Origin: a virus
Length of the DNA: 64,000 nucleotides
Strand: one strand, 5' to 3'
IMG/VR virus record: IMGVR_UViG_3300031521_000015
The notes beneath the pieces were generated by a model. That model saw only the letters and a list, made by a program, of their open reading frames with translations, was not told where the DNA came from and made no database searches. Shown piece by piece: positions 13,562-36,279 of this stretch; the first letter of the stretch is position 1; the number at the start of each line of letters is the position of its first letter. Position numbers and translations under genes: made by a program.

Positions 13562-14776
13562 ATGGCGACAGTAACTACAATTACAGAATGTCAAACTAAT
13601 ACAGGTTTGATTTGTCTTAATAACGGAACAAGTTCTATCTCTATCCAAGAAAACTTTCCTATTTTCGATAGTAATTTTCCTGTAGATTACTTAGTGGATT
13701 TACTGATTACATCTATGAATGGTTTTACTTCAGGAGAAACAATAGAAGTATTAATTGATAATGTATCATTAGGTTCATTTTCAGTAGGAACTACACCAGA
13801 CAAAGCTATTTGGCTTAGTGAATTAATCGGATTGACTTCAAGAGAGATATTAAGTAGTAAACCAATTACTCAAAATATTGAATTGAAATTCTCGTCTAAT
13901 AAATTATTAAAGTTTATATTAGTTTCAGCTAAAGCAAGTGATTATGTTAGTGCAATTACAACTTACAATAATATATTAACTATTAGTAATAATTATGTTT
14001 TGGCAGAAACAGAAATACAATCAAGAGACGAGTCAAGTGTTGGAGCTATAGCCGACGCAGTATCTAATAGTAAAACAGAAATCACAGGAAATAATACAAA
14101 TGTAATAACAATTAAAAATACATTTCCTATTTGGGGAACTGCTTTACCTAAAGCATTTGTTATAGATAATTTAATAATATTCTCAAAGCTACTACCTATG
14201 AACACAGAGATATATATCAAAAAAGATGGAATTCCAATAAAGACATATAAAACCACTACAAACTTAAAATGTACATATTTAAGTGATATATTAGGGGTTT
14301 CTAAAGAACTATTATACACAAAAGTAAATGAAGAATATGAACTAAATTTCGTTTATCCACAATTTATAAATAACCAAATATTAACAGGGGAATTAACAGA
14401 TTTTTCTGTTGCATCTGTAATGGCTACACAATTACAACAAAATATTTTTGAATTATCAAATTCTCATACACTTGATGATGCACCTGTAAATACTAACGAT
14501 TGTAATTTTATAGTTACATATGATAGTTATGATAGAAGTATAAAGAGTGCAGAATTACAACTCAATAATCAACAAAGTATTACCTTATCATTTTTAACTG
14601 ATAATTCAGAAAGTTCTCCTATTCCATTAGTTAAATTATCAAATTTGGATAATTTATATAACACAGAAATTTCACTAGTAATGGACGGACAAGCAATACA
14701 AGATTATTTAACAATAATTAGAGATTTTGCAAGAAAAAGAAATGAATTAGAATATCAATATAAAACTAATAAGTAG
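13562..14776 (+). CDS. Hypothetical structural protein with internal domain duplication
   Basis: ISIQENFPIF...LVDLLI...IWLSELIG repeated as ITIKNTFPIW...VIDNLI...TYLSDILG. Confidence 0.6.
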   Translation: MATVTTITECQTNTGLICLNNGTSSISIQENFPIFDSNFPVDYLVDLLITSMNGFTSGETIEVLIDNVSLGSFSVGTTPDKAIWLSELIGLTSREILSSKPITQNIELKFSSNKLLKFILVSAKASDYVSAITTYNNILTISNNYVLAETEIQSRDESSVGAIADAVSNSKTEITGNNTNVITIKNTFPIWGTALPKAFVIDNLIIFSKLLPMNTEIYIKKDGIPIKTYKTTTNLKCTYLSDILGVSKELLYTKVNEEYELNFVYPQFINNQILTGELTDFSVASVMATQLQQNIFELSNSHTLDDAPVNTNDCNFIVTYDSYDRSIKSAELQLNNQQSITLSFLTDNSESSPIPLVKLSNLDNLYNTEISLVMDGQAIQDYLTIIRDFARKRNELEYQYKTNK

Positions 14777-14784
14777 GTGATATT

Positions 14785-15678
14785 ATGAGCTTTAAAATGA
14801 TGTCTTCAGGAGGTGTGTCTAGGTCAAATAATCTTCCAAAACAAGGTGATTATCATGGACAGATATTAGAATATTTAAAAGATAATACAAACAATCCTGA
14901 ATTATATTCTTGGAATGAGTTACGGAAGAAATGGATTCCAATAAGTGGTGGTGGAGGAAATGTAACTTATCAGAACTCAAATCCTATGTCAATTGCTGTT
15001 GGTGGATTTTCAGTAGGAACAAATTTTGTGGAAGAAAAAACAATTCAAGAGATGTTAGATGGTTTATTATACCCGTATATTGCACCGACTGCAAACTTAG
15101 GAACTACAGTTTCAACAATACAAGAACTAGGTACAAATTTGGCTAGTATTCAATTAAATGCAACAATGACTAAAAAATCTAATGATATTACAAAGATAGA
15201 ATATTATAAGAATGGAAGTTTAGTTAATTCAAAAGATAATCCTTCTTTAAGTGAAAGTTATGTTGATTCTACGGGAATAAATAGTAATACAACTTATATG
15301 ATAAAGGTCTATGATAGTAAGCCAAATACGGTTTCAAGTAATTTAAGTTTTAACTATATTTATCCAATGTACATAGGTAATGTTGATGTAATAAATCCTA
15401 CTGAAGCAGATGTGAAAGGTATGATTAAAAAATTAGTAACAAAAGCAAGTCAAAGTTTATCTTATAATATTTCAAATAGTAGATTTTGTTTCGTATTTCC
15501 AACCTCATATGGTAGTTTGACTTCAATCAAAGATCCTAATAATTTTGAAATGTTATCAGCTTTTACAAAAACAACTTCAAATTTTACAATGCTTGATGGA
15601 AAATCAATACCTTATAACATATACACCTTGAGTATGCCTACAAGTCAAACGAGTTTTACAATAACTTATATATTCTAA
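14785..15678 (+). CDS. Phage fibre/structural protein
   Basis: GGGGNVTYQNSNPMSIAVGG...TIQEMLDGLLYPYIAP motif, then an Ig-like domain; motif partly shared with the next gene. Confidence 0.65.
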   Translation: MSFKMMSSGGVSRSNNLPKQGDYHGQILEYLKDNTNNPELYSWNELRKKWIPISGGGGNVTYQNSNPMSIAVGGFSVGTNFVEEKTIQEMLDGLLYPYIAPTANLGTTVSTIQELGTNLASIQLNATMTKKSNDITKIEYYKNGSLVNSKDNPSLSESYVDSTGINSNTTYMIKVYDSKPNTVSSNLSFNYIYPMYIGNVDVINPTEADVKGMIKKLVTKASQSLSYNISNSRFCFVFPTSYGSLTSIKDPNNFEMLSAFTKTTSNFTMLDGKSIPYNIYTLSMPTSQTSFTITYIF

Positions 15679-15698
15679 TAGAAAGGATGTGAAAATAT

Positions 15699-18600
15699 AT
15701 GGCAAGTGGAATTCCAATAGCGAGTGGGTTTTTATTAGGTTCACAACAACCAGTCGATTTACGTACAGTGGTTGATACATATGCTGATTTACAAGCTATG
15801 CCAATAATTCAAAGACATCTTGGTTTATTAGTATATGTAACTAATGATAAACAATATTATTATATAAAAGATGATTTAAATATATGGGAAATATTTAATG
15901 GTGGTTCAGGAGGCAGTGGTGGAAGTATTTTGTACACAAATCAAGAACCTTCAACAATTGCTGTAGGTGGAGTAAATATCGGATTCAAGCCGAAACCAAC
16001 AGGAATTCCTTTGGAAAAGTTAGCTTATCTTATGCTTCATGCAGGTAGTACAGACATAGTTAAATCACCAGTTTTAGTACAATCAACTTATGATGGACAA
16101 TCTAATATACCAGTAGATTTAGAATATATAGCGTTTGATATAACTAATGATATAAATACAGTATTAAAAGATATAACAAAAGTTACTTCTAATCCAAGTG
16201 GTGCAATAAAAGATGTTACATTGGTGGGAACGAAATTATATGTTTATTTAAATCCTCTTAACACAGGTACAATTTATGATGTGAAACTAGATTTGGGAGT
16301 GATTTTGAATGAAGGCGATGATGAAACGTCGTTTGGAGAAGCACAGAATGATTTAGCATTAATTTGCTCATTTGAAACTGCTTGGCTTAGTTATCCAATT
16401 TCACCAACAGTTTTACCTTCATCAATGGATGGTGTAATTGACCAACCTTTATCTTTAAGTGAGATAACTTTTGATGTTAATGATACCTTTAATTTAACTT
16501 TAGATAGTGTAAGTTCCGTAATATCAAGTCCAACAAATATAATTAATACTGTGACATTAGTTGGCAACACAATTCATGTAGGATTACATAACCTAGCTAA
16601 TTTAACAAATTATACAGTAACAGTAAATCCAAATACTGTAGAAAATAACGGAGATAATATTATAACAGCTAGAACATCTCCAAATACAAATACAGTATCA
16701 TGTACATTTAAAACAATAGCACCTGATATTAGTAAACCAGTAATATTGCAATCATCAATGAATGGTTTAACAGAACAAAATATATATACTACGGAAATTA
16801 CGTTCCCTGTTTCAAATGCTATTGCAATGACATTAAAAGATGGAACACAAGCAACTATATCAAGTAGTGGAGTAAGTGCAACTATTGGTACTGCTACTTT
16901 AGATGGTTTAAATGTATTACATATTCCAATTTTGACTAGTAAACTAGAGTATTCAACTACTTATACAATTTCAATATTAGCGAATATAGTTGAAAATCAT
17001 GGCGATGGAATTAATAATTTAAATAGTGCTACAAATACAAATAGTGTGACAACTAGTTTTTCGACCACTACAAAGCCGAAGCCCCAAAATCCAATTATAA
17101 ATCAATCTGCAATCAACAATACAAATGTAGTTTCAGTAAATTTAAGTGAGATAACTTTCCAAATTTCTAACGATTTTAATTTATCTTTAGCTGATGCTAC
17201 TAAAATTACATGTAATAAAACAGGAGTAATAGGGACACCAACTTTAAATTTAGCCACTAAAACAATTCATATTCCAATAATATCGACTTTGGCTTATTAT
17301 ACATCTTATACCATAACACTTCAAAGTGGGTTAATAGTTAATAATGGTGACAATGTTGATACTTTCGGTACAAGTCCTAATGCAAGTATAAGTGCAAGTT
17401 TTATAACTGAGCCTACATTAGTTACTCCACCAATAGTACAAAATTCTAGTATTAATGGTTTAAGTAATCAATCAAGAACTTTGACAGAAGTTGTATTTCC
17501 TATTAGTAATTTTATTGGTACAACAATTAAAGATAGTACAAAAATAACTTGTGATCATGCTGTAATAGGTACACCAACTATAAGTGGAAGTGCTATACAT
17601 ATTCCTATTGTAACTACTTTAGATTTTTTAACAACCTATAGTATATCAATAAATGCTAGTGCAATTCAAAATAATGGAGATGGAATTTCTGCTTTAAGTA
17701 ATAATCCTAATACAAATAGTGTGACTTGTACATTTACAACTATAGATAGACCTGTTGTGTCTGCACCTACAATATTACAAAGTAATCTTAATAACGCAAC
17801 AAATCAATTAACAACATTGAGTGAAATTACGTTTGATGTTTCTAATGCTATTGGTTTGACACTTGTGAATGGATTAAAAGTAACAAGTAATCCAAGCGGA
17901 ATTATAGGAACAGCTACTTTAATAGGTAATGCAATTCATGTGCCTTTGAGTGGATTGAATACAGGTACAACCTATACAGTAAGTATATTGGCTGGAATTG
18001 TTCAAAATAATGGTGATAATATTACAACTAGTGGAAGTACGTTAAATAGTAATACAATAACAGCAACTTTTAAAACAAAAGCAGGAAATGTAAGTCAGCC
18101 TATTGTACAACAGAGTAGTAGCAATGGTTTAACCAATCAACAAATTACATTGAGTGAAATTACTTTCGGAGTTTCAAATGCAATAGGTACAACTTTAAAA
18201 GATGGTAGTAGAGTAAGTATTAGTCCTAGTGGAACTGTTGGAATAGCTACTTTATCATCAAATACATTACATATACCTTTGAGTAATATAACATACTCCA
18301 CTACCTACTCTGTAAGTGTGTTAGATGGAATTGTTACTAACAATGGTGATGGAATTAACAGTAGTGGTACAGCAGATAATACAAATACTGTAACTGCTAG
18401 TTTTACAACAAGAGCAATATTATCTGCACCTAGTTTAACAGCTTCAACATCTACTAGTTATCCTGAGAATACTACACAAATAATTTATACAATTAATCAA
18501 AGTAGTTGTACTTTATTAGATACTAGTAAAATAGTTGTAACAGGTGCAAATAAAGGAACAGTAAGTATTAGTGGAAATCAATTAATAATTCCTATTGGTG

Positions 18601-19052
18601 GAATGGTTAGTGGAAATACTGTTACAGTGAATATTAGTAGTGGTGCAATTGCTAATAGTGATGGAGTAAGTAATGGTGCATTGAGTGATTATACATTTAG
18701 CATAACCGATGCCTCCATTGCATTACCTGCACATGACTTTGAATTAACAATTCCATGGTCTGTTGGAATAATGAGTCTGAATTTGATTTCTGTAACAGGT
18801 TATAGTCCTTCAAACGTATTAAATGCAACAAATTATACTACGCAAAAAATACAAGTTTACTTTGTTGGAGTAAAAGCTGATTTAGATAGTGGCATCCCAG
18901 AAAAAAATGAAAGAATACCCATGAGAGATTATGAAAGTAGTGCAACTAATAATACCTACGTAGGCAAGTGGTATATGTCATCACTTAATGTTATAAAATT
19001 TTTGTCAGCACCTTTAACTGATATAAAGATTAAAATAATAAAATTAATTTAG
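15699..19052 (+). CDS. Long fibre/adhesin with about 7-8 tandem ~112-aa Ig-like repeats
   Basis: N-terminus GIPIASGFLL..QQPVDLR; repeats P.I.QSS.NG...LSEITF.VSN...IHIP...Y.V.I...NNGD.I; no signal peptide. Confidence 0.75.
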   Translation: MASGIPIASGFLLGSQQPVDLRTVVDTYADLQAMPIIQRHLGLLVYVTNDKQYYYIKDDLNIWEIFNGGSGGSGGSILYTNQEPSTIAVGGVNIGFKPKPTGIPLEKLAYLMLHAGSTDIVKSPVLVQSTYDGQSNIPVDLEYIAFDITNDINTVLKDITKVTSNPSGAIKDVTLVGTKLYVYLNPLNTGTIYDVKLDLGVILNEGDDETSFGEAQNDLALICSFETAWLSYPISPTVLPSSMDGVIDQPLSLSEITFDVNDTFNLTLDSVSSVISSPTNIINTVTLVGNTIHVGLHNLANLTNYTVTVNPNTVENNGDNIITARTSPNTNTVSCTFKTIAPDISKPVILQSSMNGLTEQNIYTTEITFPVSNAIAMTLKDGTQATISSSGVSATIGTATLDGLNVLHIPILTSKLEYSTTYTISILANIVENHGDGINNLNSATNTNSVTTSFSTTTKPKPQNPIINQSAINNTNVVSVNLSEITFQISNDFNLSLADATKITCNKTGVIGTPTLNLATKTIHIPIISTLAYYTSYTITLQSGLIVNNGDNVDTFGTSPNASISASFITEPTLVTPPIVQNSSINGLSNQSRTLTEVVFPISNFIGTTIKDSTKITCDHAVIGTPTISGSAIHIPIVTTLDFLTTYSISINASAIQNNGDGISALSNNPNTNSVTCTFTTIDRPVVSAPTILQSNLNNATNQLTTLSEITFDVSNAIGLTLVNGLKVTSNPSGIIGTATLIGNAIHVPLSGLNTGTTYTVSILAGIVQNNGDNITTSGSTLNSNTITATFKTKAGNVSQPIVQQSSSNGLTNQQITLSEITFGVSNAIGTTLKDGSRVSISPSGTVGIATLSSNTLHIPLSNITYSTTYSVSVLDGIVTNNGDGINSSGTADNTNTVTASFTTRAILSAPSLTASTSTSYPENTTQIIYTINQSSCTLLDTSKIVVTGANKGTVSISGNQLIIPIGGMVSGNTVTVNISSGAIANSDGVSNGALSDYTFSITDASIALPAHDFELTIPWSVGIMSLNLISVTGYSPSNVLNATNYTTQKIQVYFVGVKADLDSGIPEKNERIPMRDYESSATNNTYVGKWYMSSLNVIKFLSAPLTDIKIKIIKLI

Positions 19053-19063
19053 GGAGGAATAAG

Positions 19064-19768
19064 ATGAGTTATGATTCAAGTACGGATTTACAACAGATAC
19101 AATCCGATATCTTAACAGAAGATACTAGTAGTAATACCTTAATGCCTTATGACTCTCTTGATTTTTTAAATAAAGCATTAAAAACAGATCAAACTAATAT
19201 AGTAGGTTCTGTTAATGATTTACAAACTTTAGTAAATGGACTATTTGATAACTTTACTAACTTTGGTAGAAAATTTAATGGAGTATTGTTAGATACTGAT
19301 TCATCTGTTGGACAAGCAAAAGTTCAAGAAATGCAAACATTATTAGGGTTTAGTACTGTTTTAGAAGCAATAGTTGAGTTAGCTAAAAGAAGTAATGATT
19401 CAACTATAGATACGCATATAACAGGTTTAGGTGGCGTATTAATTGGACAAGTTGTTTTTATAACCAATGCCAATACCGTTGCTGTTGCAGATTGTAATAA
19501 TGTAGTATGTTCAAATAAAGTTGTAGGACTAGCAATAAATACATCTTCAGAAGGTGAAAAATCTTATGTTAGAAATAAAGGCAAAATAGTAAATCCATTA
19601 TGGAAAACTAATTTTGTAACAGGTGATATAGCTTATTGTGGAAATACAGGAGAAATAACAAAGACACCAAATATGCTTTTATCAAAATTTATTCAAAAAA
19701 TAGGTGTATTTACTAATGATGATGGTGAACTATTAATTGATATTGCTGAAAGCGTAGAACTAGAATAA
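19064..19768 (+). CDS. Structural protein with C-terminal capsid-cement/decoration-like (DUF2190-like) domain
   Basis: IGQVVFI...AVAD...VVGLA...GDIAYCG.TG.IT.TP...QKIG pattern. Confidence 0.5.
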   Translation: MSYDSSTDLQQIQSDILTEDTSSNTLMPYDSLDFLNKALKTDQTNIVGSVNDLQTLVNGLFDNFTNFGRKFNGVLLDTDSSVGQAKVQEMQTLLGFSTVLEAIVELAKRSNDSTIDTHITGLGGVLIGQVVFITNANTVAVADCNNVVCSNKVVGLAINTSSEGEKSYVRNKGKIVNPLWKTNFVTGDIAYCGNTGEITKTPNMLLSKFIQKIGVFTNDDGELLIDIAESVELE

Positions 19769-19799
19769 ACAAATTAAATGATGAAAGAGAGATGATATA

Positions 19800-20333
19800 A
19801 TGTCAACACAAAAATTTATAACTATTGATAGCACAGGTAAAAAGATATTAAGAGGTGCTGTTGATACAAGTTTAGGTTCAGCAGACAGTGGAAAAATTGT
19901 AGGATTAAACGTAGACGGAAAAGTGGATATTTCTATGATTCCGACTTCCGTGGGAAAAGTAGGATGTATTTTTGCTTTATCAGAACCATTATCAGCAGGT
20001 GATTGGGTAAATGTTTTTACAGACGGAACAGATTACAAAGCAAGATTAGCTGATGTAACTGATTCAGCTAAAGTATGTCATGGTTTTACTACTGCTAATG
20101 GTATTGCTGGAGATAGTGTACTAATCATGTTTGAAGGATTGAACGATTATTTGCCAACAGTAGGACTAGTAAATGGTGCTAGTTATTTCTTAGGAACTCT
20201 TGGTAAAGCAGTTGCAACACCAGATATGACAACTGCTTCTAAATTCGTACAACCATTGGGATATTGTGTTAATACAAGTGATAGTACATTAGCAATAAGG
20301 TATGAACAAGATGAAGTTATTTATTTAGAGTAG
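19800..20333 (+). CDS. Structural protein, decoration-like domain
   Basis: DSGKIVGLNVDGKVD.SM.P...LSAGDWVNV...ARLAD...HGF...YFLGT.G...QPLG. Confidence 0.5.
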   Translation: MSTQKFITIDSTGKKILRGAVDTSLGSADSGKIVGLNVDGKVDISMIPTSVGKVGCIFALSEPLSAGDWVNVFTDGTDYKARLADVTDSAKVCHGFTTANGIAGDSVLIMFEGLNDYLPTVGLVNGASYFLGTLGKAVATPDMTTASKFVQPLGYCVNTSDSTLAIRYEQDEVIYLE

Positions 20334-20337
20334 GTGA

Positions 20338-20754
20338 ATGAATGTGAAATTTATAACTTTAAATAGTAATGGAAATAAAGTTTTAAAATCAATACCAACA
20401 AAAACAATTGTATTTCAATTCTTTGAAGTATCCGATAAGATAAAAGATCTAATAATTAGATGTCCTTATAATGGTAAGATAGTTAAAATAAGTGCAAGTA
20501 CAAATAATATAGGGACTGTAGATACACAATTAATAGTAGAAAAGATAAGTAAGGGTGATTTTAAAAATCAACTAGATACATGGTCTAGTGTGTTAAGTAG
20601 TAACTTATTTATTAGAACTGAACAAGTAGTTGATGATGGAAGTTATTTAGTCGGTTCTGATATTGTTAGTATTGGTGATTATTTTAGAGTTAATTTAATT
20701 GGTGCTAGTGACTTGAAAGGATTAAATTTAGAAATTGAAATAGAAGTGATTTAA
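20338..20754 (+). CDS. Small structural protein
   Basis: Shares N-terminal KFIT(I/L)..GKK.L peptide with 19800..20333; beta-rich RCPYNGKI domain. Confidence 0.55.
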   Translation: MNVKFITLNSNGNKVLKSIPTKTIVFQFFEVSDKIKDLIIRCPYNGKIVKISASTNNIGTVDTQLIVEKISKGDFKNQLDTWSSVLSSNLFIRTEQVVDDGSYLVGSDIVSIGDYFRVNLIGASDLKGLNLEIEIEVI

Positions 20755-20777
20755 ATAATAAATTAATATAAAATTAT

Positions 20778-20898
20778 TTGACAATATCTCTCAAAAGGAG
20801 TATATTTATAGTAGGGGATAGCAAGGAGTAATTAACCATGTCAATAAGAGTATTATCCTAGATACTCTTCCCTTTTTACATATATAATGCTAGGATAA
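20778..20898 (+). promoter_or_regulatory. Sigma-A promoter plus structured 5' leader (possible pseudoknot)
   Basis: TTGACA-17-TATATT (20778-20806); hairpin 20846-20869 whose loop is complementary to CTAGGATAA (20890-20898). Confidence 0.55.
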
Positions 20899-20923
20899 CA
20901 AATTAAATTATTATAGGAGATGA

Positions 20924-22411
20924 TTGGACATGTTATTGACAAAGGAAGTTGAAGTAGAACTAAATGGAACTAATGTAAAGCATTATGAAGAATTGGGGTA
21001 TGAAATACTTAGAGAAAAGAAATGGAAGAAATGGTCAATTCCCACGGGTACTAAAATAAAAGTAAAAATTGAAGATGTGCCAAAAGGTTCTCATACAGAA
21101 GTGCAATGTTTGTGTGATTATTGTTTAGAAAAAGGTATAAGGACAGTAATTAATAAAAGATATCAAACACACATAAGAGAAAATAAAGATATTTGTGGTA
21201 AATGTAGTAAGAATAAAATAAAAGAAATACATGCGTTAGAAATTCAAACAAAAGTAAAAGAAACTTTTGACTTAGATATAACAAAGGATGGATATTATGA
21301 TTTAAAAAATGTTCAAAAAGTTATTGAATATTTTATATCAAAAAATAATAGATTTCCTAATACTAAAGAAATGTTATCTGTTTTGTTTATTAGTAATTCA
21401 ATTAGTAAAATGCATGGAGGTATGACCAATATTCAAAAAACTATGGGATATAAAAAAGAAGATTTATTGGTTGATGATAGTGGTATGTCTAATAGATCAG
21501 TTTATGAATATTATACAGCTATGTTTTTGTTAGGATTTAATATTTCATTTAAAAGAGAACAATCTCCATTTCCAAAAGGAGAAGGATTATTCAGAAGTGA
21601 TTTTACTTTTTATTTAGAAAATAATAAAACTATTCATTGTGAAGTATGGGGATACCCTAAAGAATTAAAGTCTAGTTTAGGAATAGCATATAATAAAAAT
21701 AGAAAAATCAAAGAAATATTATATGAAAAACATAATGTAGAATATATATCAATAGAACACGATGTTTTTATAAATGGTCTTGAACATATGCAAACAGAAT
21801 TAAAAAATATATTTAATGATTTTATTATAAATAAAGATTTAGTGTTGTCAGTAGAATATTTATTACCACCATACAAGTTATCTGATACTCAAATATTAGA
21901 AAGAATGATGAAATTTAGTGAAGATAAAAATACTCTTCCATCCTGTAGCCATTTAAGAGATATCGGGCAAAGAATGTTATATGAAGAAGTAATAAAAAGA
22001 TATAAAACTTATAAAACATTTGCAGATAAATTTGATAAAAAATTACTTTCTGATGTATATTGGGACACAGAAAAAGCACATAAATCTATATATGATATAT
22101 GTAATGAATTAAATAAAGATGTATTTAGTAACAATCTATTAGAGAAAGTAATAAAAAATAATAATGAATATAGTGGATTGGGTAGGTTTATTAGTTACCA
22201 AGGTGATTTTGTTGATTATTTTTTAGATTTTATAGAAATAAAAATAATCAATGAAAATGAAATGATAGCTGATGATATTATGAAAAAACTAGTTAATTTA
22301 ACATTTGGTAAATATCCACATAGAAAAAACAAAGTGACAGATTTCCAAATAGAAAAATCAAAATATCTATTAAACTTAATAAAAGAAAAGCAATTTAAAG
22401 AGGTAGTTTAA
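20924..22411 (+). CDS. Free-standing putative homing endonuclease (Zn-ribbon + PD-(D/E)xK-like domain)
   Basis: CDYC...CGKC; FRSDFTF...IHCEVWG...Y...RKIK; Lys-rich unlike its neighbours; has its own promoter and terminator. Confidence 0.6.
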   Translation: MDMLLTKEVEVELNGTNVKHYEELGYEILREKKWKKWSIPTGTKIKVKIEDVPKGSHTEVQCLCDYCLEKGIRTVINKRYQTHIRENKDICGKCSKNKIKEIHALEIQTKVKETFDLDITKDGYYDLKNVQKVIEYFISKNNRFPNTKEMLSVLFISNSISKMHGGMTNIQKTMGYKKEDLLVDDSGMSNRSVYEYYTAMFLLGFNISFKREQSPFPKGEGLFRSDFTFYLENNKTIHCEVWGYPKELKSSLGIAYNKNRKIKEILYEKHNVEYISIEHDVFINGLEHMQTELKNIFNDFIINKDLVLSVEYLLPPYKLSDTQILERMMKFSEDKNTLPSCSHLRDIGQRMLYEEVIKRYKTYKTFADKFDKKLLSDVYWDTEKAHKSIYDICNELNKDVFSNNLLEKVIKNNNEYSGLGRFISYQGDFVDYFLDFIEIKIINENEMIADDIMKKLVNLTFGKYPHRKNKVTDFQIEKSKYLLNLIKEKQFKEVV

Positions 22412-22425
22412 AACTATCTCTTTTT
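22397..22425 (+). terminator. Terminator
   Basis: AAAGAGGTAGTTT/AAACTATCTCTTT plus T tract. Confidence 0.65.
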
Positions 22426-22469
22426 ATTATACAAAAAAATAAATTAAAAAGAAAGAAGGATGATTAATT

Positions 22470-23093
22470 ATGGCTATACCTATAATTTCATGGAGAAATA
22501 TATCAGATTCTAGTGTTGCATCTTTGGCGGATTTCGGAACTGTTGATGCTGGAAGTTCGAGTGCAGTACTACAATTTTATCTTTTTAACAATTTTGCAGG
22601 TAGCAGTATTGTCAGCAATTGCGAAAGTGCAAAATTGACAATAAAGTCAAATACTGGAGGAATTAGCGATTCGGTGGTCGTTTCAGAAAAATGGTCGTCG
22701 GCTCGTTGCGAATCTGCATCAGAGACAAATTACACACAAATAGGAGGTACTTATAACTCAGGAACTTCAGCGTGGGACGAAACAGCTCTCAGTATTTGTG
22801 CAGACTACTCTTCTTTAAGTGGTGCAGTTGTAAGTGCAACTCAACCTAGTACAGGATTAGTTGATGGATTAATATGGGTTAAAACATCAGCATTAGGAAA
22901 TTCTACATACAGATATAACTTAGGCACAACTACTTTTGTTCAAATTTACGAAATAAGTGGTGCTATAAATACTGGTGCAGTAGCTACTTCAAAAGCTAAC
23001 TTTATTAAAATATCGCTCAGAAATGACGTACCTTCAGCTTCACTTGCAGGGACATATTCCTACAAAACTCGACTCAGATACTCATTTGTATAG
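22470..23093 (+). CDS. Putative major filament/fibre subunit
   Basis: Ser/Gly/Thr-rich 207 aa, DFGTVDAG..S motif, followed by its own strong terminator. Confidence 0.5.
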   Translation: MAIPIISWRNISDSSVASLADFGTVDAGSSSAVLQFYLFNNFAGSSIVSNCESAKLTIKSNTGGISDSVVVSEKWSSARCESASETNYTQIGGTYNSGTSAWDETALSICADYSSLSGAVVSATQPSTGLVDGLIWVKTSALGNSTYRYNLGTTTFVQIYEISGAINTGAVATSKANFIKISLRNDVPSASLAGTYSYKTRLRYSFV

Positions 23094-23117
23094 AAAATAC
23101 GTCAAAATAACCACAAT

Positions 23118-23158: not shown

Positions 23159-23211
23159 TCATACCCAAAATCAACAAATTAAAACAATAACAAAAGGGAG
23201 GCAACAATACA

Positions 23212-23853: not shown

Positions 23854-23859
23854 TTATAG

Positions 23860-28158: not shown

Positions 28159-28182
28159 TAAAATATAAAAGTAGGTGATATT

Positions 28183-30822
28183 TTGGCAATTAATAATCCA
28201 TATGCTTTAAAATTTGGTGGAACAACAAATGTTACAATTCCACATTCTAACTCATTAAGCCCATTGCGACAAATGACTATAGAGTTTGATATTAAGATAA
28301 ATTCTTTTGTTAATACTTGGATGCCAATTATTTATAAAGGAAATGCTAGGCAATATAGTATGTGGGTACATAGTACAGGACGTATGTATTTAGGAACTGA
28401 AAAGTTAGACGGAACTCAAGAAATTTTATGGAGTGATACTATAACTCCTGTAATGGTGGCGAATACTTGGTATCATATAGCAGGAGTTATTAATAGAGAT
28501 ACAGGTATTCTTAAACTTTATTTAAATGACGCTTTATGGTTTAGTATTGCTATTACAGTAGGAGTCGATACTTTAGTTCAACCTTATCCATTATATTTTG
28601 GAAGTACAACAGAAGTAAATTCAGCATATTCTATGTTTAATGGATATTTAGATAATGTAAGAATGTGGAATATTGAAAGAACATTAACACAAATTAAAGA
28701 TAATAGAAAGAAACAATTAAAAGGAAATGAAAATAATTTAATTGCTTATTGGAAGTTTAATGAAGGAAACGGAACTACGATAACTGACGTAGTTAATGGG
28801 AATAATGGGATAATTGTTAATGGTACTTGGGCAACGGGTGGAGTTGATTTAGATCCAATTTGTGAATTTGATAAAGCAGAAATTATTCCAAGCAATATAT
28901 GGACATATAAAAATAATAATGATAGTTTATTAAAATGTACAATAGATACAGATTTTGGAACTCAAACTCAATATAAAATATTTATAAATGGCATTCAATA
29001 TTATCCATCAAGTGGATATACATTATTAACAACAACTCCATATGATATTCAAATGGCAATTCCTCAAAGTGCTTTTAATTCAGGCAAAAATACTTTATAT
29101 ATAGATGTTTTAAGTGTAGAAAATTATTTATATAGACTTGGGACATATAATGTTTATAAAGAAGACAGAGATAGTACAAGTTCTCAAAGAGACTTTGATT
29201 TTAATTCCGAATATACGATGACAAACAATAATTCAAACTGTAATGAAAATGGTTTATCTTTAATTGGATATGGTACTGATATAGTAATATCTAATGACAA
29301 TTCACAATTAAAGACAATTGGAAAAAGGAAAATAAATAGTATAGCAATAACAGGAACAGATGATTCCATTCAATCTACTACACTTGTAGAAGACATGGAA
29401 ACAGATATGATAGTAGGAACAGGAACTAAATATACGTATGATATAAATTCTGATAGATTCACTGAGTTGAATGGAATGGTGATTTCTAATGGAAATACTT
29501 TAATCCAAACAGACGATAAAGTATATACTTTTAAAGGTACGGGTTATGTAGATATAGGCAATCAAAATCCAACTCAATTAGACTTCCAAAATAATGATGT
29601 TACTAATTTAAATCTATTATTTGCTGATATGAATATTGCAAGATTTGTTCCATCGAATAAAGGTGTTTTGGGTGATGGATATTTATATAGACAAATAGTA
29701 AATTTATCAAAGTATAATGGAGTTAAAAGTGCTATTTATTCCAATGGTATTGTAAACTTTGGTACATATAGGGCGTGGAGTGATGGGACTTATGCAAAAT
29801 CTGCTGAAGAATATCTTAGACCAACAGATGGAAGTCATGTGTATATGGGAGATACAGGTAGTGGCATATATAGAATAAAACCAACACCTTATGACGCCTG
29901 TGGTATATGGACTTTATATCAAGATGCTACAAGATATGAAACAGTAGACTCTAGTCAAAAATGGATAAGATTAAAAAGCACATCATGGTGTGGTTATTGG
30001 GATATGGTAGTTTTATCAGGCACATGTACACTATCATTTGAATATAAAGGAAATGGAACTTTTGCTATTGATAATGATGGAGTTAATGATAATACATTTA
30101 ATGCTACTTTAGTCGGAACATCTGATTGGCAGACATATACTATAACAAAAACATTAGCTACTTCTGGACATTTATTATTATATATGTGTAATACAGTAGG
30201 AACAAACACAGAAATTAGAAACATAAAATTAGTGAAACCAACAGTAATACAAGATGTTTATTGTGATATGAATACATCTAATAATGATGGAGCATGGATG
30301 TTGGTACTTAACACAGGAGTAAAAGGAACATTAACTACAATGGCAACATCAAGTGGAACATTACCTGTATTGTCAGCAAGTACAACCATGTGTAAACTAG
30401 GTGACGATGTTATAAATGCATTACGAGGAAAAGATTTATCAAAGAGTATAATTAAGGTTGATAGACCTAATAACCCTAGTTTTAAAACTTTACCAATTTA
30501 CTTTAGACAAAATACACCTTATATATCAGATTCTCCAAGATACGGAACTGTACAAGATTCTTATCAAACTATTTATATGTATTATCCTCTTTATTTAGAT
30601 GCAAAAAATGGTACAAGTACGGGAAGATATGGTGCAAATGCAACAAATTACGGAAGTGCTTTGAGTACATGGGGCAGTACAAGTTTCCCGTCTACTAATG
30701 CAACTGCTTATTATTTAATAATGAACTACTCTAGTGAAGCTTGTATATCTCATGATTCATCGGCTTACGAAGGGTCAAGATCGGAAAGAAACTGCTTAAT
30801 ATGGGTGAAACAATTAGCTTAA
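28183..30822 (+). CDS. LamG + fibrinogen-C-like domain protein (pair 2, A subunit)
   Basis: WYHIAGV...LDNVRMWN...LIAYWKFNEG; SGIYRIKP...VYCDMNT..GAWMLV. Confidence 0.75.
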   Translation: MAINNPYALKFGGTTNVTIPHSNSLSPLRQMTIEFDIKINSFVNTWMPIIYKGNARQYSMWVHSTGRMYLGTEKLDGTQEILWSDTITPVMVANTWYHIAGVINRDTGILKLYLNDALWFSIAITVGVDTLVQPYPLYFGSTTEVNSAYSMFNGYLDNVRMWNIERTLTQIKDNRKKQLKGNENNLIAYWKFNEGNGTTITDVVNGNNGIIVNGTWATGGVDLDPICEFDKAEIIPSNIWTYKNNNDSLLKCTIDTDFGTQTQYKIFINGIQYYPSSGYTLLTTTPYDIQMAIPQSAFNSGKNTLYIDVLSVENYLYRLGTYNVYKEDRDSTSSQRDFDFNSEYTMTNNNSNCNENGLSLIGYGTDIVISNDNSQLKTIGKRKINSIAITGTDDSIQSTTLVEDMETDMIVGTGTKYTYDINSDRFTELNGMVISNGNTLIQTDDKVYTFKGTGYVDIGNQNPTQLDFQNNDVTNLNLLFADMNIARFVPSNKGVLGDGYLYRQIVNLSKYNGVKSAIYSNGIVNFGTYRAWSDGTYAKSAEEYLRPTDGSHVYMGDTGSGIYRIKPTPYDACGIWTLYQDATRYETVDSSQKWIRLKSTSWCGYWDMVVLSGTCTLSFEYKGNGTFAIDNDGVNDNTFNATLVGTSDWQTYTITKTLATSGHLLLYMCNTVGTNTEIRNIKLVKPTVIQDVYCDMNTSNNDGAWMLVLNTGVKGTLTTMATSSGTLPVLSASTTMCKLGDDVINALRGKDLSKSIIKVDRPNNPSFKTLPIYFRQNTPYISDSPRYGTVQDSYQTIYMYYPLYLDAKNGTSTGRYGANATNYGSALSTWGSTSFPSTNATAYYLIMNYSSEACISHDSSAYEGSRSERNCLIWVKQLA

Positions 30823-30860
30823 AATGGTTAATATTTTTAAAAGAAAGGAGGTATCTCTTT

Positions 30861-32435
30861 ATGGAATATACATTTGTTAAAACTTTAGCTGGAAAACTAT
30901 TAACTTTTAATGGCACTAGTTGGGTAGACTCTATATTAGTAGAACCACTTACAAAACAAAACTTTATTGATTTTGGTATTTCATCAATAAATTCTATAAC
31001 TGAAGCACAATGGTCAACTTTAGATGAAGACCAAGTAGAATTTATTACTTGGTCTGATAAATCTACAAATCTAAATTTAATATTTAATACATCTAATACA
31101 TATAAACCATTTTTTGTTATTGATAGTCCTAAATTATTATGTTGGAGTGATACAGTAGTTCCAAGTGTAATATTAAATATTAAAGCTCAATTAATGTCTA
31201 AGTTCTTATTTTCTAAAGATGGCAGAAATTCTTGGTGGACATTTAAAAGTGGAGTATGGCAACAAGTATTATTAAGTGATATTGATACAAAAGGAATGAC
31301 AAGACTAGAAGTTAATAATATATTAGATGGCGATATAAATGCGTGGTTTAAGCGTGGAACATTAGATTATGCAGTATATATGTATTCGGAAAGCAATATG
31401 TTAAGTCCGCAAATAAATAATTTAATTACCACATATCCTGTTAATTCATCTCCTACAATTAGTAATTTAACAATTAGTCCTGATACAACATTATATAGAA
31501 CAAATATAAAATTATCAGCAGATTTGCAAGATTTAGAAGGCGATTTATTTCAATATAAGATTACTATCAATGGGATATTTATTGACTTTGAAGGCAATAA
31601 CGGATGGTCTGATTGGCTAGATGGAGAACAAATTCAACAAATTGCACACACGTATAATTATTTAGATTTCAAAGTAGGTAATAATATTATTATTTTATCT
31701 GTCAAAGATTCTAGGGGATTAGTTTATTCTATTACAAAATATTTAAATATGGTAAATAACAATCCCATATTTTCAAGTATTTTATCTGATAATTGGAGTG
31801 TTTCTGGGTCACTCGATGATATTAATGGAGACAAAATTAGATATAGAATGTTGATAAATGGGGTGCAAAAATATCCATATACTGAGGATTTAAGTACACC
31901 ATCTTATACTGAATATTTTGACGTACCTCATTATATAGAACATAGTTGGACAAGTGATGATTTAATATTGAACAAACAAAATACAATAAAATTTGAAATA
32001 CAGGATTATGTAGGAGGCACACTTGCATATTCGCTTAATTCTATTGGAAAATATAAAAATTTGATGTTTAAAGATGAAGTATCAGGGTTTTATTCAGATG
32101 CACATGGAAATATTTTAGAGATGCTTGATTTTGGCACTCTAACTGCTGGTCAAACTAGTGACGTAAAGAGAATATTGATTGAAAATGACTATGGATATCC
32201 AGTAGAGAATACATTTATAACAGTAAAATCTGATACCGTGGTAAATTATGAGTTGCATATAGCAAAAGACTCTTCGTTTGTACCAGAAGGGGCAGATACA
32301 TTAACTCAATTAAATTTTCCTTTTATATTACAAGACGGTGAAAGTAAAGAGTTTTTTTGTCGTATCACGAGTGACGTACATTCTAGTGGGACAGGTGGAA
32401 TATTTGAAATAGATGCGATTTGTGAACCAGTTTAA
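30861..32435 (+). CDS. Fibre-cluster protein (pair 2, B subunit)
   Basis: ATG 30861 after AAGGAGG; paralogous to the 25198 C-terminus (FSKDG..W, DLEGD, DNWS.SG, DFG...G..S....IENDYGY). Confidence 0.75.
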   Translation: MEYTFVKTLAGKLLTFNGTSWVDSILVEPLTKQNFIDFGISSINSITEAQWSTLDEDQVEFITWSDKSTNLNLIFNTSNTYKPFFVIDSPKLLCWSDTVVPSVILNIKAQLMSKFLFSKDGRNSWWTFKSGVWQQVLLSDIDTKGMTRLEVNNILDGDINAWFKRGTLDYAVYMYSESNMLSPQINNLITTYPVNSSPTISNLTISPDTTLYRTNIKLSADLQDLEGDLFQYKITINGIFIDFEGNNGWSDWLDGEQIQQIAHTYNYLDFKVGNNIIILSVKDSRGLVYSITKYLNMVNNNPIFSSILSDNWSVSGSLDDINGDKIRYRMLINGVQKYPYTEDLSTPSYTEYFDVPHYIEHSWTSDDLILNKQNTIKFEIQDYVGGTLAYSLNSIGKYKNLMFKDEVSGFYSDAHGNILEMLDFGTLTAGQTSDVKRILIENDYGYPVENTFITVKSDTVVNYELHIAKDSSFVPEGADTLTQLNFPFILQDGESKEFFCRITSDVHSSGTGGIFEIDAICEPV

Positions 32436-32490
32436 TAAAATGTAGACATCGTATGGCTCAATACAATGAGAAAGGATGTGAGAAAATGAA

Positions 32491-35400
32491 ATGCAATATG
32501 ATAACGACTTAAATTCATATATAATAATTAATAGAAGTAATGTTCAAAATGAAGCTTATGCAAAAATTGATATAGATTCTGTCAATAATTTAAATAGTAC
32601 AATTACAGTTAGATATAATGATGAATCAGTACAAGACGAAAATGTTTCATTATCAAGTACCTTAACTATTCCAATAAAGAACAAAATGTTTGGTACTGTA
32701 GATATAGTCAAAACACAAAAAATAACTCAAATTATACCTTGCTTAAAAGATGCATTCGTGAGATCAGACCAACCAGTTCTAAATTACGGAAAAGAAAAAG
32801 ATTTATTAGTTGGTTATTCATCTTCTTTTGATGGAATATTTAGAACATTCATGGACTTTAATTTACTTCGATTACAAAAAGGTTTAATAATAACAAAAGC
32901 AACAATAAAAGCAACTAGGATAAGTACTGATAATTTTATTCCTAACTTAGAAGTATACGAATGTTTAAATAGTTTTGATGAAAATGATATTACATGGGAT
33001 AACCAACCTCCAATGGGAACTCTACTTGAAACATTCCAAGGTGGAACTTCACTAGGTCAGAAATATATATATTGTGATGTTACAAATAGTATTATTGATT
33101 GGTACGAAGGAAATAGATTCCAAACAGGATTTGTTTTTAAATCTTCAGACGAAACTTATAATCAATATGGTAGAACTTATTCAAGAGAATCAAGTTTTAC
33201 TCCTATATTGGAAGTTGAGTATTTTAACCCTAATCCTCCTAGCTATGGGTCAGCAATATTAAATAGTAAAATAAGTGTAAAAATACCTGCAAAAAATGAA
33301 TTAAATTGTACTATAATAGTTCCTGAATATGATTTTAATAATGATTTAGATAGTACAATAACAGTTAGAAATAATAGTTATTTAGATTGTAAATTACAAG
33401 TATTAACAGACGCATTAAATAGTAAAATCAATGTTGCAACAGGAGTTAATTTAAATTCTATAATAAAAGTTAAAATAAATACTGCTAGAGATTTCAATTC
33501 ACAAGTTGCAGTATCCCAACCTAATATTAGTTGTAAAATAACTGTAGTTAATAATTATCAAATGCCTTGTATTATAAATGTTACACAAATTAAGGATTTA
33601 GATTGTAAGGTGAAAGTTAGAAGATATGATATTAGTGAACTAAATTCAAATATTAAAGTTACTAATATTTTAGACTTAGTTAGTAAACTTGCAGTAAGAC
33701 GTAATGAATATAAAGATTTAAACTCTAAAATAATAGTACGAAGAAAAGATGTAAGTGAACTGAATTGCACAATATCTACCACAAGATTTAGTGAATTATC
33801 ATCAAAGATAACAGTTAGAAGGTATAATTATAATGAGTTAAGTTCGATAATTAAAGTCAGAAGATACGACATTAATGAATTAAATAGTAAAATTTTAGTT
33901 ATGTTTACCAATGACTTAGATTCTACAATTAAAGTTAGAAGGTCTGAAGATAATGATTTAAATTCCATAATTAATGTAAGAAGATATGACGATGGTAGCA
34001 TTGATAGTACAATTTTAATTTCATTATTTGAAGAATTGGGTTGTAAGATTTTAGTTAGTAAGGGCGAAGTTGATTCTATAATAAAAGTAAGAAGATATTT
34101 AGATGATGATTTCAATGGAATAGTAAAAATATCTCCAACAAGTGAATTCTTAAGTAAAATAAAAGTTACCAATTATAAAGAATTAAATTCTAAAATATCT
34201 GTTAGAATACCTTCTGCAAAAGATTTATCAACTAAAATAACAGTAAGAGATATGTCTACAGTAGATTGTATCTTGAATGTCAGAAGATATGACAACAATG
34301 AATTCGATTCACAGATTACAGTTAGAAGAAATGATATAACTGATATCAATTCAAATGTATTAGTCAGAAGAAATGAAAATATTGATTTAAATTCAACTAT
34401 TCATGTAAGATTTGTCGATGGTAAAAACGATATCTCAAGTAAGATGTTTGTATACATTACAGATACTAATGATTTAGATTCTACTATCTTAGTAATTAAT
34501 GAAGGTACTGAGGATTTAAATTCTATAATCAAGACTAGACCTTCCAATAGAATGTTTGGTATTGTAGATATATTACCAGCTCCTAAAGTTAATTTGACAT
34601 TAAAGCCGGTACAAGATGCTTATACCAGAAGTCAATTACCTACATTCAACTATGGTAGCGAAATTGATATGTATGTTGGTAATAATAGTGGAGAATTATA
34701 TCGCTCATTCTTACAGTTTGATTTAAGTGGGATACCTACAACTAGGGTATTTACAAAGGCTATTTTAAAATTACATAGTAATACGTCTTATTATACAAGT
34801 GGTATTCAATTAGATGAAGTAAAAGATTCTTGGTATGAAAATGATATAACTTGGAATAATCAAGAAGATTCTTTAAGTACAATAAAAGCTGTTTCTAGCG
34901 TTAGTGGAAGTATTATAGAAATTGACTTAATGTATATAATTGATAATTGGTTCAATGGTAGTATGCTACAAAATGGATTTATAATTAAATCACTTGATGA
35001 GTCAATTCAACAAAGACTAAGGCTTTATTCTAGGGAAAGTGTTTATCCACCTACCTTAGAAATAGAGTATTTTGATACTACAGTAAAGAGTAATGTTTCT
35101 AATGATTTTTTAAGTAAAATATTCGTAATGAGTGTTGAAAATAAAGATTTAAGTTGTTCAATTACTGTACCTAATTATAATTTAGAAAGCGATTTAGATT
35201 CATCTTTGGTCGTAAATAATAATGGATACTTAGATTCTAAAATTACTGTTATTCGTGGAGATTTAGATTGTAAACTAGTTGTAAAAAGGAATGAAGAAAA
35301 TAATTTAGATTCCTTATTAAAAGTTAGATTAAATGAAATAAATGAATTATCAAGTACAATTATTGTAAATAATCCGTATATAAATTCTATCATAACAGTA

Positions 35401-36279
35401 AAACGTAATGAAATAGATAATATTGATAGTAATTTAATTGTCCGAAGAAATGAAATATTATCATTAGACTCTAAAGTTGTAGTAAGAAGAAATGAATACA
35501 AAGAACTTAATAGCAAAATCATAGTAAATAATCCTGATATAGCTAGTATAATTAAAGTTACACCTACAAGTGAGTTATATTCAAGTATTATAGTACGAAG
35601 AAATGACGTTTTAGATTTAAATAATAAATTAAGTGTAACTCAACGTAGCGATTTAAATTGTGTAATCAATGTTCTAACAAATGAATTAATAGGTTGTATA
35701 ATTAAAGTAAGAAACACTTGGGATTCAGAATTAGATTCTAAAATCATAGTAACTACTTATAATAATCTAGATTCATTAATAGAAGTAACCAATCACGCAA
35801 ACTTAAGTTCTACTATTAAAGTTAGAAGATATTCAGATATTGATCTTAATTCAAAAATCAATATAATAGCAAATGATAATTTAGATAGTAAGATTAATGT
35901 TATTAAACCATCTTATTTAAATTCAGTAATTAAAATAAGGAATACTAAAGAAATTGATTTAAATTCAAAAATTGATATTATATCAGTAGAAAATTTAGAT
36001 TGTATAATTAGAGTTGCTAAAGGAGATATTTCTTGTAAGATTAAAGTTAGAAGAAATGAATACAATGACTTAGATAATAAAGTAGAGATTACTCCTACTA
36101 ATGATTTAAATGGTATTATTTCAGTATCAAATATTTCAGAATTAAGTTGTAAAATAATAACTAGGACTCCTTATAATAATGATTTGAGTTCTAAAATAGA
36201 AGTTTTAGGAAGTTTATCTGATTTAGAATGCAAGATAGTTGTTGGAAATAAAATTATTGGATATGTGTTTATAATGTAA
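32491..36279 (+). CDS. Giant repeat protein with two DNRLRE/CBM96-like domains and dozens of 13-16-aa beta-strand repeats
   Basis: DAFVRS..P..NYG...FRTFMDFNL...ITW.NQP and DAYTRS..P..NYG...YRSFLQFDLS; repeats (N/S)(D/E)L(D/N)S.I.VRR. Confidence 0.75.
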   Translation: MQYDNDLNSYIIINRSNVQNEAYAKIDIDSVNNLNSTITVRYNDESVQDENVSLSSTLTIPIKNKMFGTVDIVKTQKITQIIPCLKDAFVRSDQPVLNYGKEKDLLVGYSSSFDGIFRTFMDFNLLRLQKGLIITKATIKATRISTDNFIPNLEVYECLNSFDENDITWDNQPPMGTLLETFQGGTSLGQKYIYCDVTNSIIDWYEGNRFQTGFVFKSSDETYNQYGRTYSRESSFTPILEVEYFNPNPPSYGSAILNSKISVKIPAKNELNCTIIVPEYDFNNDLDSTITVRNNSYLDCKLQVLTDALNSKINVATGVNLNSIIKVKINTARDFNSQVAVSQPNISCKITVVNNYQMPCIINVTQIKDLDCKVKVRRYDISELNSNIKVTNILDLVSKLAVRRNEYKDLNSKIIVRRKDVSELNCTISTTRFSELSSKITVRRYNYNELSSIIKVRRYDINELNSKILVMFTNDLDSTIKVRRSEDNDLNSIINVRRYDDGSIDSTILISLFEELGCKILVSKGEVDSIIKVRRYLDDDFNGIVKISPTSEFLSKIKVTNYKELNSKISVRIPSAKDLSTKITVRDMSTVDCILNVRRYDNNEFDSQITVRRNDITDINSNVLVRRNENIDLNSTIHVRFVDGKNDISSKMFVYITDTNDLDSTILVINEGTEDLNSIIKTRPSNRMFGIVDILPAPKVNLTLKPVQDAYTRSQLPTFNYGSEIDMYVGNNSGELYRSFLQFDLSGIPTTRVFTKAILKLHSNTSYYTSGIQLDEVKDSWYENDITWNNQEDSLSTIKAVSSVSGSIIEIDLMYIIDNWFNGSMLQNGFIIKSLDESIQQRLRLYSRESVYPPTLEIEYFDTTVKSNVSNDFLSKIFVMSVENKDLSCSITVPNYNLESDLDSSLVVNNNGYLDSKITVIRGDLDCKLVVKRNEENNLDSLLKVRLNEINELSSTIIVNNPYINSIITVKRNEIDNIDSNLIVRRNEILSLDSKVVVRRNEYKELNSKIIVNNPDIASIIKVTPTSELYSSIIVRRNDVLDLNNKLSVTQRSDLNCVINVLTNELIGCIIKVRNTWDSELDSKIIVTTYNNLDSLIEVTNHANLSSTIKVRRYSDIDLNSKINIIANDNLDSKINVIKPSYLNSVIKIRNTKEIDLNSKIDIISVENLDCIIRVAKGDISCKIKVRRNEYNDLDNKVEITPTNDLNGIISVSNISELSCKIITRTPYNNDLSSKIEVLGSLSDLECKIVVGNKIIGYVFIM

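Follow-up and report, generated by a model that had tools for sequence, protein, structure and literature searches.

A gene cluster at positions 13,562–36,279 of a 64,000-nucleotide stretch of viral DNA (the window; IMG/VR record IMGVR_UViG_3300031521_000015) probably encodes a host-adhesion apparatus carried by the virion, at the tail tip or the periphery of the baseplate, as a portable block that is unlinked from the tail-tip genes in this phage. We give this reading a probability of about 0.6. The apparatus would consist of lectin-tipped fibre proteins and the platform that attaches them. Genes are named here by the window position at which they start (Table 1). All open reading frames (ORFs) named in a first-pass annotation of the letters were present, on the plus strand, and its view of the cluster as structural and glycan-binding is supported by the sequence comparisons described below. 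We distinguish a core (20338–36279), which is a widely conserved collinear module of large Bacillota phages, from a front half (13562–20333) specific to the lineage.

Megablast of the whole cluster against cultured phages gave no match. Using tblastn, we found adjacent homologues of genes 22470 and 23212 in the Brevibacillus phages Sundance, Jenst and SecTim467, the Bacillus phages G, SP-15 and EZ-2018a, the Listeria phage LIS04 and the Psychrobacillus phage Perkons. Gene 23212 alone matched Clostridium phage c-st and Lysinibacillus phage LC76P1; by alignment, the neighbouring c-st protein CST117 is a 22470 homologue too. In the annotated records, the pair is followed by one to four proteins with the same C-terminal region, and then by a giant protein with CBM96 modules or the label “pectate lyase”. 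The block comes directly after the baseplate wedge genes (gp25/J/I) in the myoviruses SP-15 and LIS04, and after the genes for the tape measure protein (YomI), YomH and Tal/YomG in the siphoviruses Sundance and c-st. In IMG/VR, a scan seeded with an alignment identified 43 loci, and a single-protein scan found nothing. Among the 30 non-redundant loci, a 22470-like gene was present in 27, the C-terminal domain in 26 and the giant gene in 27. The order 22470-like gene, 23212-like gene, C-terminal-immunoglobulin (Ig) protein, CBM96 giant was seen in 22 of the 30, and most of the exceptions stem from the 10-kb limit on the flanks. A further 24 prophage loci, nearly all of them in Paenibacillus, came from a pattern search of bacterial genomes. 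The synteny comparison across Firmicutes phages that the first-pass annotation had proposed yields a collinear module in cultured phages and in the IMG/VR loci.

We also scanned with Pfam 130 ORFs encoded upstream of the module in 23 loci. Matches were to Prophage_tail (nine), YOMG_N (eight), Dit-type DUF6558 (seven), PAAR (four) and Phage_base_V (two), and a Tal or hub gene was located within 10 kb upstream in about 19 of the 23 loci. As a general rule, the module forms the distal part of a tail-tip or baseplate operon. Its carriers, among them many large phages and prophages, have hosts in Bacillus, Paenibacillus, Brevibacillus, Listeria, Lysinibacillus, Psychrobacillus and Clostridium. The core genes are annotated as hypothetical or mis-annotated (PAAR, excinuclease, chromosome-condensation regulator, flagellin), even in phage G, SP-15 and c-st. 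For instance, Sundance_41, an “excinuclease ABC”, carries a YomF/20338-type domain, and this annotation looks wrong, as does the label “flagellin FlaA” of Sundance_44. SP-15_063 and LIS04_85, both “regulator of chromosome condensation”, have at most an N-terminal RCC1 propeller, and their C-terminal region is a triple Ig.

The larger proteins of the core combine a conserved C-terminal end with a variable N-terminal lectin end. Residues 465–986 of 25198 are 37% identical over 530 amino acids to the ORF that begins at 30801 and extends 30861 upstream; the shorter form assumed in the first-pass annotation has the true start, as its ATG is preceded, 8 nt upstream, by the strong ribosome-binding site AAGGAGG. 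The first-pass annotation had counted three LamG proteins in the cluster. Two of them stand, with Laminin_G_3 (PF13385) matched at 46.3 bits in 25198 and 63.2 bits in 28183 (cut-off 27.6). The third does not: in Pfam, neither 23860 nor 30861 matched this family above the cut-off, and the N-terminal 220 residues of 23860 are a different domain. Residues 2–220 of 23860 match phrog_10356 (virion structural protein) and also virion proteins of unrelated phages, and its residues 230–432 resemble residues 226–432 of 28183. The giant protein 32491 has two stretches of CBM96 (PF24517; E 2.3e-39, 135.3 bits against a cut-off of 26), and its homologues are SP-15_064 (4401 amino acids, annotated as pectate lyase), LIS04_86, phage G gp367 and c-st CST114. 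Searches of the cluster revealed no catalytic domain.

The composition of these proteins differs in two sister contigs, G001 and G002, which match this phage in gene order throughout the block 13562–32491. G002 has two triplets of separate genes: A encodes a lectin head with a “Y” domain, B a middle part, and C a triple Ig. Here, A and B are fused in 28183, whose halves are separate ORFs of 420 and 590 amino acids in G002, and 25198 joins an A-type head to C. Since separate genes in G002 are fused in different pairs in this phage, A, B and C are likely to act in one assembly. Across 32 relatives, the part N-terminal to the conserved Ig region contains an RCC1 propeller, LamG or GLUG (three proteins each), SPRY or F5/8-C (two each), or a lactonase propeller or sialidase-N domain (one each). 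Carbohydrate-binding modules thus vary among relatives, a feature of adsorption proteins of the tail tip and baseplate. We reject the label “regulator of chromosome condensation” that PHROG gives to the C-terminal region: the region consists of three Ig-like domains, and the RCC1 propeller is confined to the N-terminal part of a few relatives.

The C-terminal ends are related to the small protein 22470. According to the first-pass annotation, the motif DFG..AG..S...N of 22470 recurs at the extreme C-terminus of 25198 and 30861. The recurrence is real (residues 19–41 of 22470, about 887–907 of 986 in 25198, and about 441–461 of 544 in the 30801 ORF), and the placement was inaccurate: in both larger proteins, the motif opens the last domain, of about 105 residues, and is not the literal C-terminal end. 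Aligned with hhalign, the 22470 family and the terminal-domain family match across the motif (probability 77%, E 2e-5, 47 columns), and in the 345-residue C-terminal region the third, last Ig domain alone is matched. The similarity in the motif exceeds chance. Searches of the PDB by sequence and by profile with 22470 and the 30801 ORF gave nothing meaningful.

Structural models point in the same direction. The AF2 model of 22470 is a complete, self-contained sandwich with a mean predicted local distance difference test (pLDDT) score of 96.6. Both terminal strands of the monomer lie within the sandwich at pLDDT above 90, a result to be read with the proviso that the predictor can self-complement a donor strand. 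The C-terminal 345 residues of 30861, modelled with AF2 from 13 homologues (pLDDT 86.8), form three tandem Ig-like beta-sandwiches, two of them cadherin-like and the terminal one ASH-like. In Foldseek, the best PDB matches of this triple-Ig model were ASH-repeat ciliary proteins (E about 1e-7, 7sqc_F0 included), and the 22470 model had none in the PDB at E ≤ 1e-3. Against the BFVD viral models, the SP-15 orthologue of 22470 ranked first, and the top twelve included phage G gp366, the SP-15 “RCC1” protein and the SecTim467 LamG protein, which are fibre proteins of the module itself. The fold is a 7–8-stranded Ig-like sandwich; among solved structures, ASH, PapD-like or major sperm protein (MSP) domains come nearest to it, and weak structural matches of 22470 include Ig-fold polymers (type 1 pilins, TasA, cannulae). 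A Pfam scan of the isolated domains, with E up to 10, detected no family of the ASH, Motile_Sperm, PapD-like or DUF1573 clan, and gave GH114_assoc (E 0.0044) and unrelated weak matches only. Because Z values were under 8, 22470 is ASH/PapD-like by fold class and not by demonstrated homology. Profile comparison by hhalign and two fold searches agree in showing one ASH/PapD-like Ig sandwich for 22470 and for the terminal domain of both 25198 and 30861, and the common fold expected by the first-pass annotation is thereby borne out. Phage G has a second protein with the 22470 fold, gp173 (BFVD G3MBN9, Foldseek E 2e-5). Its number puts it a few genes ahead of gp178–183, which encode the connector, sheath and tube, and it may be another ASH-type Ig protein of the phage G tail.

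Three small proteins open the core. Protein 22470 is recorded on 31 contigs, the longest of 143,647 bp; a word-index protein search returned the query itself only. An exhaustive HMMER search gave 96 relatives, nearly all of them stand-alone proteins of 140–250 amino acids, in which both terminal strands, the N-terminal one with M1, P4 and W8, are nearly invariant. It is a small and probably abundant subunit, and a candidate multi-copy adaptor. The first-pass annotation had given 22470 its own terminator, and the hairpin with a U-run at 23118–23158 bears this out: its folding free energy is -16.6 kcal/mol (z -5.2), and none of 200 shuffled sequences was equally stable. A consensus terminator scan had missed it because of its 13-nt loop. 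A hairpin with a T-run follows the 22470-like gene in at least 14 of 25 non-redundant relatives, phage G and Sundance included. Its position is consistent with a higher dose of 22470 and of the genes upstream of it.

Gene 23212 is the most conserved of the module, with 35–42% identity to phage G gp362, SP-15_060, Sundance_43, c-st CST116 and proteins of the 43 IMG/VR loci. Neither sequence nor profile searches found a PDB relative, and leads to Hepar_II_III_C in the ESM Atlas were below threshold (0.79) and treated as noise. The domain that makes up 20338 was found by phmmer in more than 40 ORFs sitting directly upstream of a 22470-like gene, including c-st CST118 (a YomF homologue), phage G gp360 and Sundance_41. 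In relatives, the 20338-like domain is the C-terminus of a YomF-like protein encoded right after Tal. A “split YomF” in this phage was considered and dropped: the N-terminus of 6785 resembled the front of c-st CST118 (18306–18785; tblastn E 9e-5), and phmmer did not reproduce the match. The endonuclease cassette between 20338 and 22470 is an insertion and lies outside the apparatus. The N-terminus of its ORF matches phrog_5104 and phrog_12131 (homing endonuclease), and it has its own promoter-like site (20778–20806) and terminator (22397–22423). In G002, endonuclease genes occupy other places in the module: they lie ahead of the homologue of 15699 and between those of 22470 and 23212.

The module also carries a strand-specific word. 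Across 68 loci (1.04 Mb), there are 106 copies of the 10-mer CAAT[A/G]CAATG on the module strand, against a single one on the complementary strand. In the window, the 10-mer is found at 23205 and 32459, and the 130-kb genome has just two further copies. The extended consensus, YYCA-ATACAA-TGRR, is also present in loci L006–L048 and L059–L082. Typically there are two sites per module, one close ahead of the 23212-like gene, at a distance of a few to 25 nt from its start, and the other just past the last C-terminal-Ig gene and before the next gene, often the giant. In 83 distinct contexts, the two positions that flank the core on either side pair with each other 67 and 76 times, counts reached by none of 2000 shuffles, and the stem flanks covary, with C-G alternating with T-A. 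The structure predicted for the word is a hairpin, with ATACAA as its invariant loop and four or more base pairs in its stem. No Rfam family matched at either site, and we did not find the word in a relevant context in the literature. It might be a translational operator adjoining the Shine-Dalgarno sequence, mark a site of antitermination or processing, or act as a promoter element of the -10 type (TACAAT). Given its strand specificity and clear covariation, we regard it as a candidate new cis-regulatory element.

Table 1. Features of the cluster and of its surroundings, in window coordinates (aa, amino acids).
Feature	Position	Strand	Remarks
Tape-measure gene, 1911 aa	immediately upstream of window		
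Dit	571–1353		
Tal	1369–3024		Prophage_tail domains
BppU-type protein	3048–5195		
748-aa protein	6785–9031		
Endolysin	9335–10276		
Ant-type gene	10698		followed by small HNH-like gene
Cluster under study	13562–36279	+	all named ORFs
404-aa protein	13562–14776	+	opens front half; no known family
297-aa protein	14785–15678	+	weak Ig-like match, Big_7 E 0.0019, below Pfam cut-off
1117-aa fibre	15699–19052	+	N-terminal part of ~120 aa, ~nine Big_5-type Ig repeats, C-terminal domain
234-aa small protein	19064–19768	+	phrog_4368 match
177-aa small protein	19800–20333	+	matches same phrog_4368 region as 19064
138-aa protein	20338–20754	+	C-terminal domain of YomF-like proteins; first gene of core; phrog_34854, phrog_11315 (C-terminal parts)
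Free-standing homing-endonuclease cassette	20778–22428	+	ORF 20924–22411; insert between 20338 and 22470
207-aa single-domain ASH/PapD-like Ig protein	22470–23093	+	phrog_11814
Terminator-like hairpin 3' of 22470	23118–23158	+	13-bp stem, U-run at end
Hairpin word, site 1	23203–23216	+	AACA-ATACAA-TGTT; its ATG is the start codon of 23212
213-aa protein	23212–23853	+	most conserved gene of module; phrog_11178
437-aa fibre component A	23860–25173	+	N-terminal binding-type domain and “Y” domain
986-aa fibre protein	25198–28158	+	LamG and DUF4983 head; C-terminal 520 aa paralogous to 30861
879-aa protein	28183–30822	+	LamG and Y domain fused to part encoded separately in G002
524-aa protein	30861–32435	+	triple-Ig C-terminal region; longer ORF from 30801, 544 aa
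Hairpin word, site 2	32457–32470	+	CTCA-ATACAA-TGAG; 21 nt before giant gene start
1262-aa internally duplicated protein	32491–36279	+	two CBM96 modules; phrog_11333 E 3.9e-142
Two tyrosine recombinases	3' of cluster		
Replication block	after the recombinases	-	fused topoisomerase II, NrdD, ligase

The genes of the front half (13562, 14785, 15699, 19064 and 19800) have homologues only in the IMG/VR contigs G001 and G002. The 13562 protein had no Pfam or PHROG match, and its homologue in the sister contigs is 42% identical. The description of 15699 as an Ig-repeat fibre proved correct: Big_5 is matched in Pfam at E 6.9e-9, the repeats are evident in the sequence, and a word-index protein search returned just the G001/G002 homologue. 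The protein lacks a Tal-type N-terminal domain and is essentially a chain of about nine Ig repeats, which may be a stalk. Residues 55–95 of 15699 match residues 30–78 of 14785 (BLAST E 6e-4), and the two proteins have an N-terminal word in common, a glycine run followed by Y-x-N-x-x-P-x-x-I-A-V-G-G. The N-terminus of 15699 (residues 17–80) also resembles that of phage G gp369 (L001, 29576–29779). The word, together with this likeness, could be a common attachment motif. Proteins 19064 and 19800 had been called decoration-like, a label we could not verify, as both match phrog_4368, a family without known function. The N-terminal 122 residues of 19064 are kept in G001 and G002; phmmer found no other relative of 19800.

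The window is part of one phage contig of 130,085 bp (estimated completeness 74%, G+C about 27%). As the first-pass annotation had stated, the cluster stands apart from the tail module and after the lysis genes, with Dit, Tal, BppU-like, endolysin and Ant genes preceding it. It lies 10.5 kb downstream of Tal, past the endolysin and Ant genes, and the contiguity with Dit and Tal that characterizes tail-tip modules is absent for it in this genome. Judging by the Ant-like and HNH-like genes at 10698–13295 and farther upstream, the late region may have many mobile inserts. G001 and G002 have no homologues of this phage's Dit or Tal. No Sheath or Baseplate_J family was found in this contig, G001 or G002, so that a contractile tail is unlikely for the lineage.

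We propose that the apparatus would work as follows. Since the C-terminus of the fibre proteins is conserved across Bacillus, Listeria and Clostridium hosts and the N-terminus is variable, the C-terminal Ig region would be the anchor and the N-terminal domains the ligand-binding heads, which together with the CBM96 modules would bind cell-wall polysaccharide. Proteins 20338, 22470 and 23212 would make up a multi-copy platform or adaptor on the virion, the 22470 subunit being supplied at a higher dose through the terminator after its gene, and the homologous terminal domains of the larger proteins would dock on it by Ig-Ig contacts. The first-pass idea that the larger proteins join through a homologous terminal domain and present glycan-binding tips would fit this architecture. 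Components A, B and C of each fibre would form one complex. The front half may be a lineage-specific stalk or alternative attachment, taking the place of the long Tal protein found ahead of the core in relatives, and the hairpins before 23212 and before the giant gene may co-regulate the module at the RNA level.

Several points weigh against this proposal. This phage has a complete siphovirus tail-tip set (Dit-Tal-BppU-receptor-binding protein) separate from the cluster. In G002, the block is at 22–49 kb, upstream of the tape-measure gene (67–70.8 kb) and of a gene resembling those for receptor-binding proteins (about 84 kb), and in phage G the module (gp360–367) is about 190 kb from the baseplate genes gp188–190. 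As the block is unlinked here, in G002 and in phage G, gene position does not fix a baseplate location in these lineages. Anchoring by the C-terminus would be the reverse of most phage fibres, and docking of 22470 or 23212 with the terminal domains is putative. The only module protein placed on any virion is phage G gp365, found in purified particles by liquid chromatography-tandem mass spectrometry (PMC12484599), and it has no detectable homologue in this phage. The papers on the Brevibacillus phages and Perkons and the SPbeta review give no virion localization of module genes.

Because the block moves as a unit and is not always beside tail-tip genes, there is room for a site at the neck, the tail shaft or the head. 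The proteins would then be neck or collar whiskers, tail-shaft fibres or head fibres with a role like that of the lactococcal neck passage structure (NPS) or the T4 whiskers, a placement that we consider possible, if unlikely. The unlinked block in this phage and phage G and the separate tail-tip set speak for it, as do the location of the G002 block, which has homologues of morphogenesis genes that lie upstream in this phage on one side and the tape-measure gene on the other, and gp173, the structural match of 22470 whose gene neighbours those for connector, sheath and tube. That the module adjoins baseplate genes in relatives does not settle the matter, since the lactococcal NPS genes also adjoin baseplate genes and their product is at the neck. 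Still, the module follows a Tal or baseplate hub gene in most of the relatives scanned, the 20338-like domain belongs there to the YomF-like protein encoded right after Tal, and scans of the cluster with Pfam and PHROG detected none of the connector, collar or capsid-decoration families; these observations argue against such a site. A broader version would be a self-contained, transferable appendage kit built on one Ig domain, with a ring or short polymer of 22470 holding the terminal domains of interchangeable lectin-headed proteins, and with expression set by a protein-recognized ATACAA-loop hairpin that travels along. Such a kit might be plugged onto different virion sites, since the module occurs in siphoviruses and myoviruses, beside or far from tail-tip genes, yet we think it unlikely.

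The first-pass annotation had favoured a pilin-like filament, in which 22470 polymerizes and the large proteins join through their homologous terminal domain, either anchored to the capsid or released on lysis or sporulation. The fold and profile-level motif common to 22470 and the terminal domains, the high dose suggested by the terminator, the near-invariant terminal strands of the 22470 family and the Ig-fold polymers among its weak structural matches would suit such a polymer. The machinery to export and assemble it is lacking, however. No cluster protein has a signal-like hydrophobic N-terminal segment by a simple hydropathy scan, as the first-pass annotation had itself noticed, or an LP.[TSA]G (LPXTG) word; Pfam found no sortase family among the cluster ORFs, and no pilus chaperone or usher family of Pfam or PHROG is present in any of 14 ORFs. 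Moreover, the fold of 22470 is modelled complete, its similarity to pilins is generic, and the relatives' modules are tail-tip operons. We therefore do not retain the filament, which seems quite improbable. Products that are not part of the virion, freed at lysis to bind or degrade glycans, for instance in clearing capsule or biofilm or as decoys, would agree with the position of the cluster after the lysis cassette and with its CBM96, pectate-lyase-like repeats and lectin domains. They are very improbable, given a conserved Ig architecture that is non-catalytic and without a detected catalytic domain, the collinearity of the module with tail genes in relatives, and the phage G module member in particles.

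Phage adsorption fibres are already known as a kind of system. In the literature searched, we found no description of the module's Ig-based architecture, its mobility relative to the tail genes or its hairpin signal, and the core families (phrog_11814, 11178, 16766/10667 and 11333) are without solved structure or assigned function. If the module is read as a single adsorption apparatus whose anchor end is conserved and whose heads are exchangeable, it provides a testable map of host-recognition determinants for this group of phages.

The ASH/PapD-like/MSP superfamily (CEP192 SPD-2, hydin, major sperm protein, the N-terminal domain of PapD chaperones) is the nearest in fold; 22470 differs from it in having no Pfam clan match and in its context, a phage virion module. 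Chaperone-usher pili and TasA fibres are also built from Ig-like subunits, and their tip adhesins carry a pilin domain much as the large proteins of the module carry one subunit-like domain. Unlike them, the module has no export signal or assembly machinery and its subunit is modelled as a complete fold, and the likeness is generic. The lactococcal NPS and the T4 whiskers are likewise accessory carbohydrate-binding appendages encoded near tail genes that aid adsorption; neither has a sequence relation to the module, and the NPS is a single large trimeric protein rather than a multi-gene set. In the collar of T5, the small Ig-like protein p132 forms a multi-copy ring bearing the L-shaped fibres. 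By analogy, 22470, also a small stand-alone Ig-fold protein encoded with fibres and likely present in many copies, could be a side-fibre platform, even if p132 has no sequence relation to it and, to our knowledge, is not of the ASH/PapD-like type. The tail-tip modules of Gram-positive siphoviruses (SPbeta YomH-YomG-YomF, TP901-1 Dit-Tal-BppU-BppL, the Staphylococcus 80alpha set of fibre and receptor-binding proteins) differ from the block described here, which is unlinked from Dit and Tal, co-exists with a separate BppU-type set and has fibre proteins whose conserved, presumed anchoring end is C-terminal. They resemble it in being late genes that, in the relatives, follow Dit and Tal, in their multi-domain carbohydrate-binding heads and YomF-type domain (20338), and in combining small conserved adaptors with swappable binding domains.

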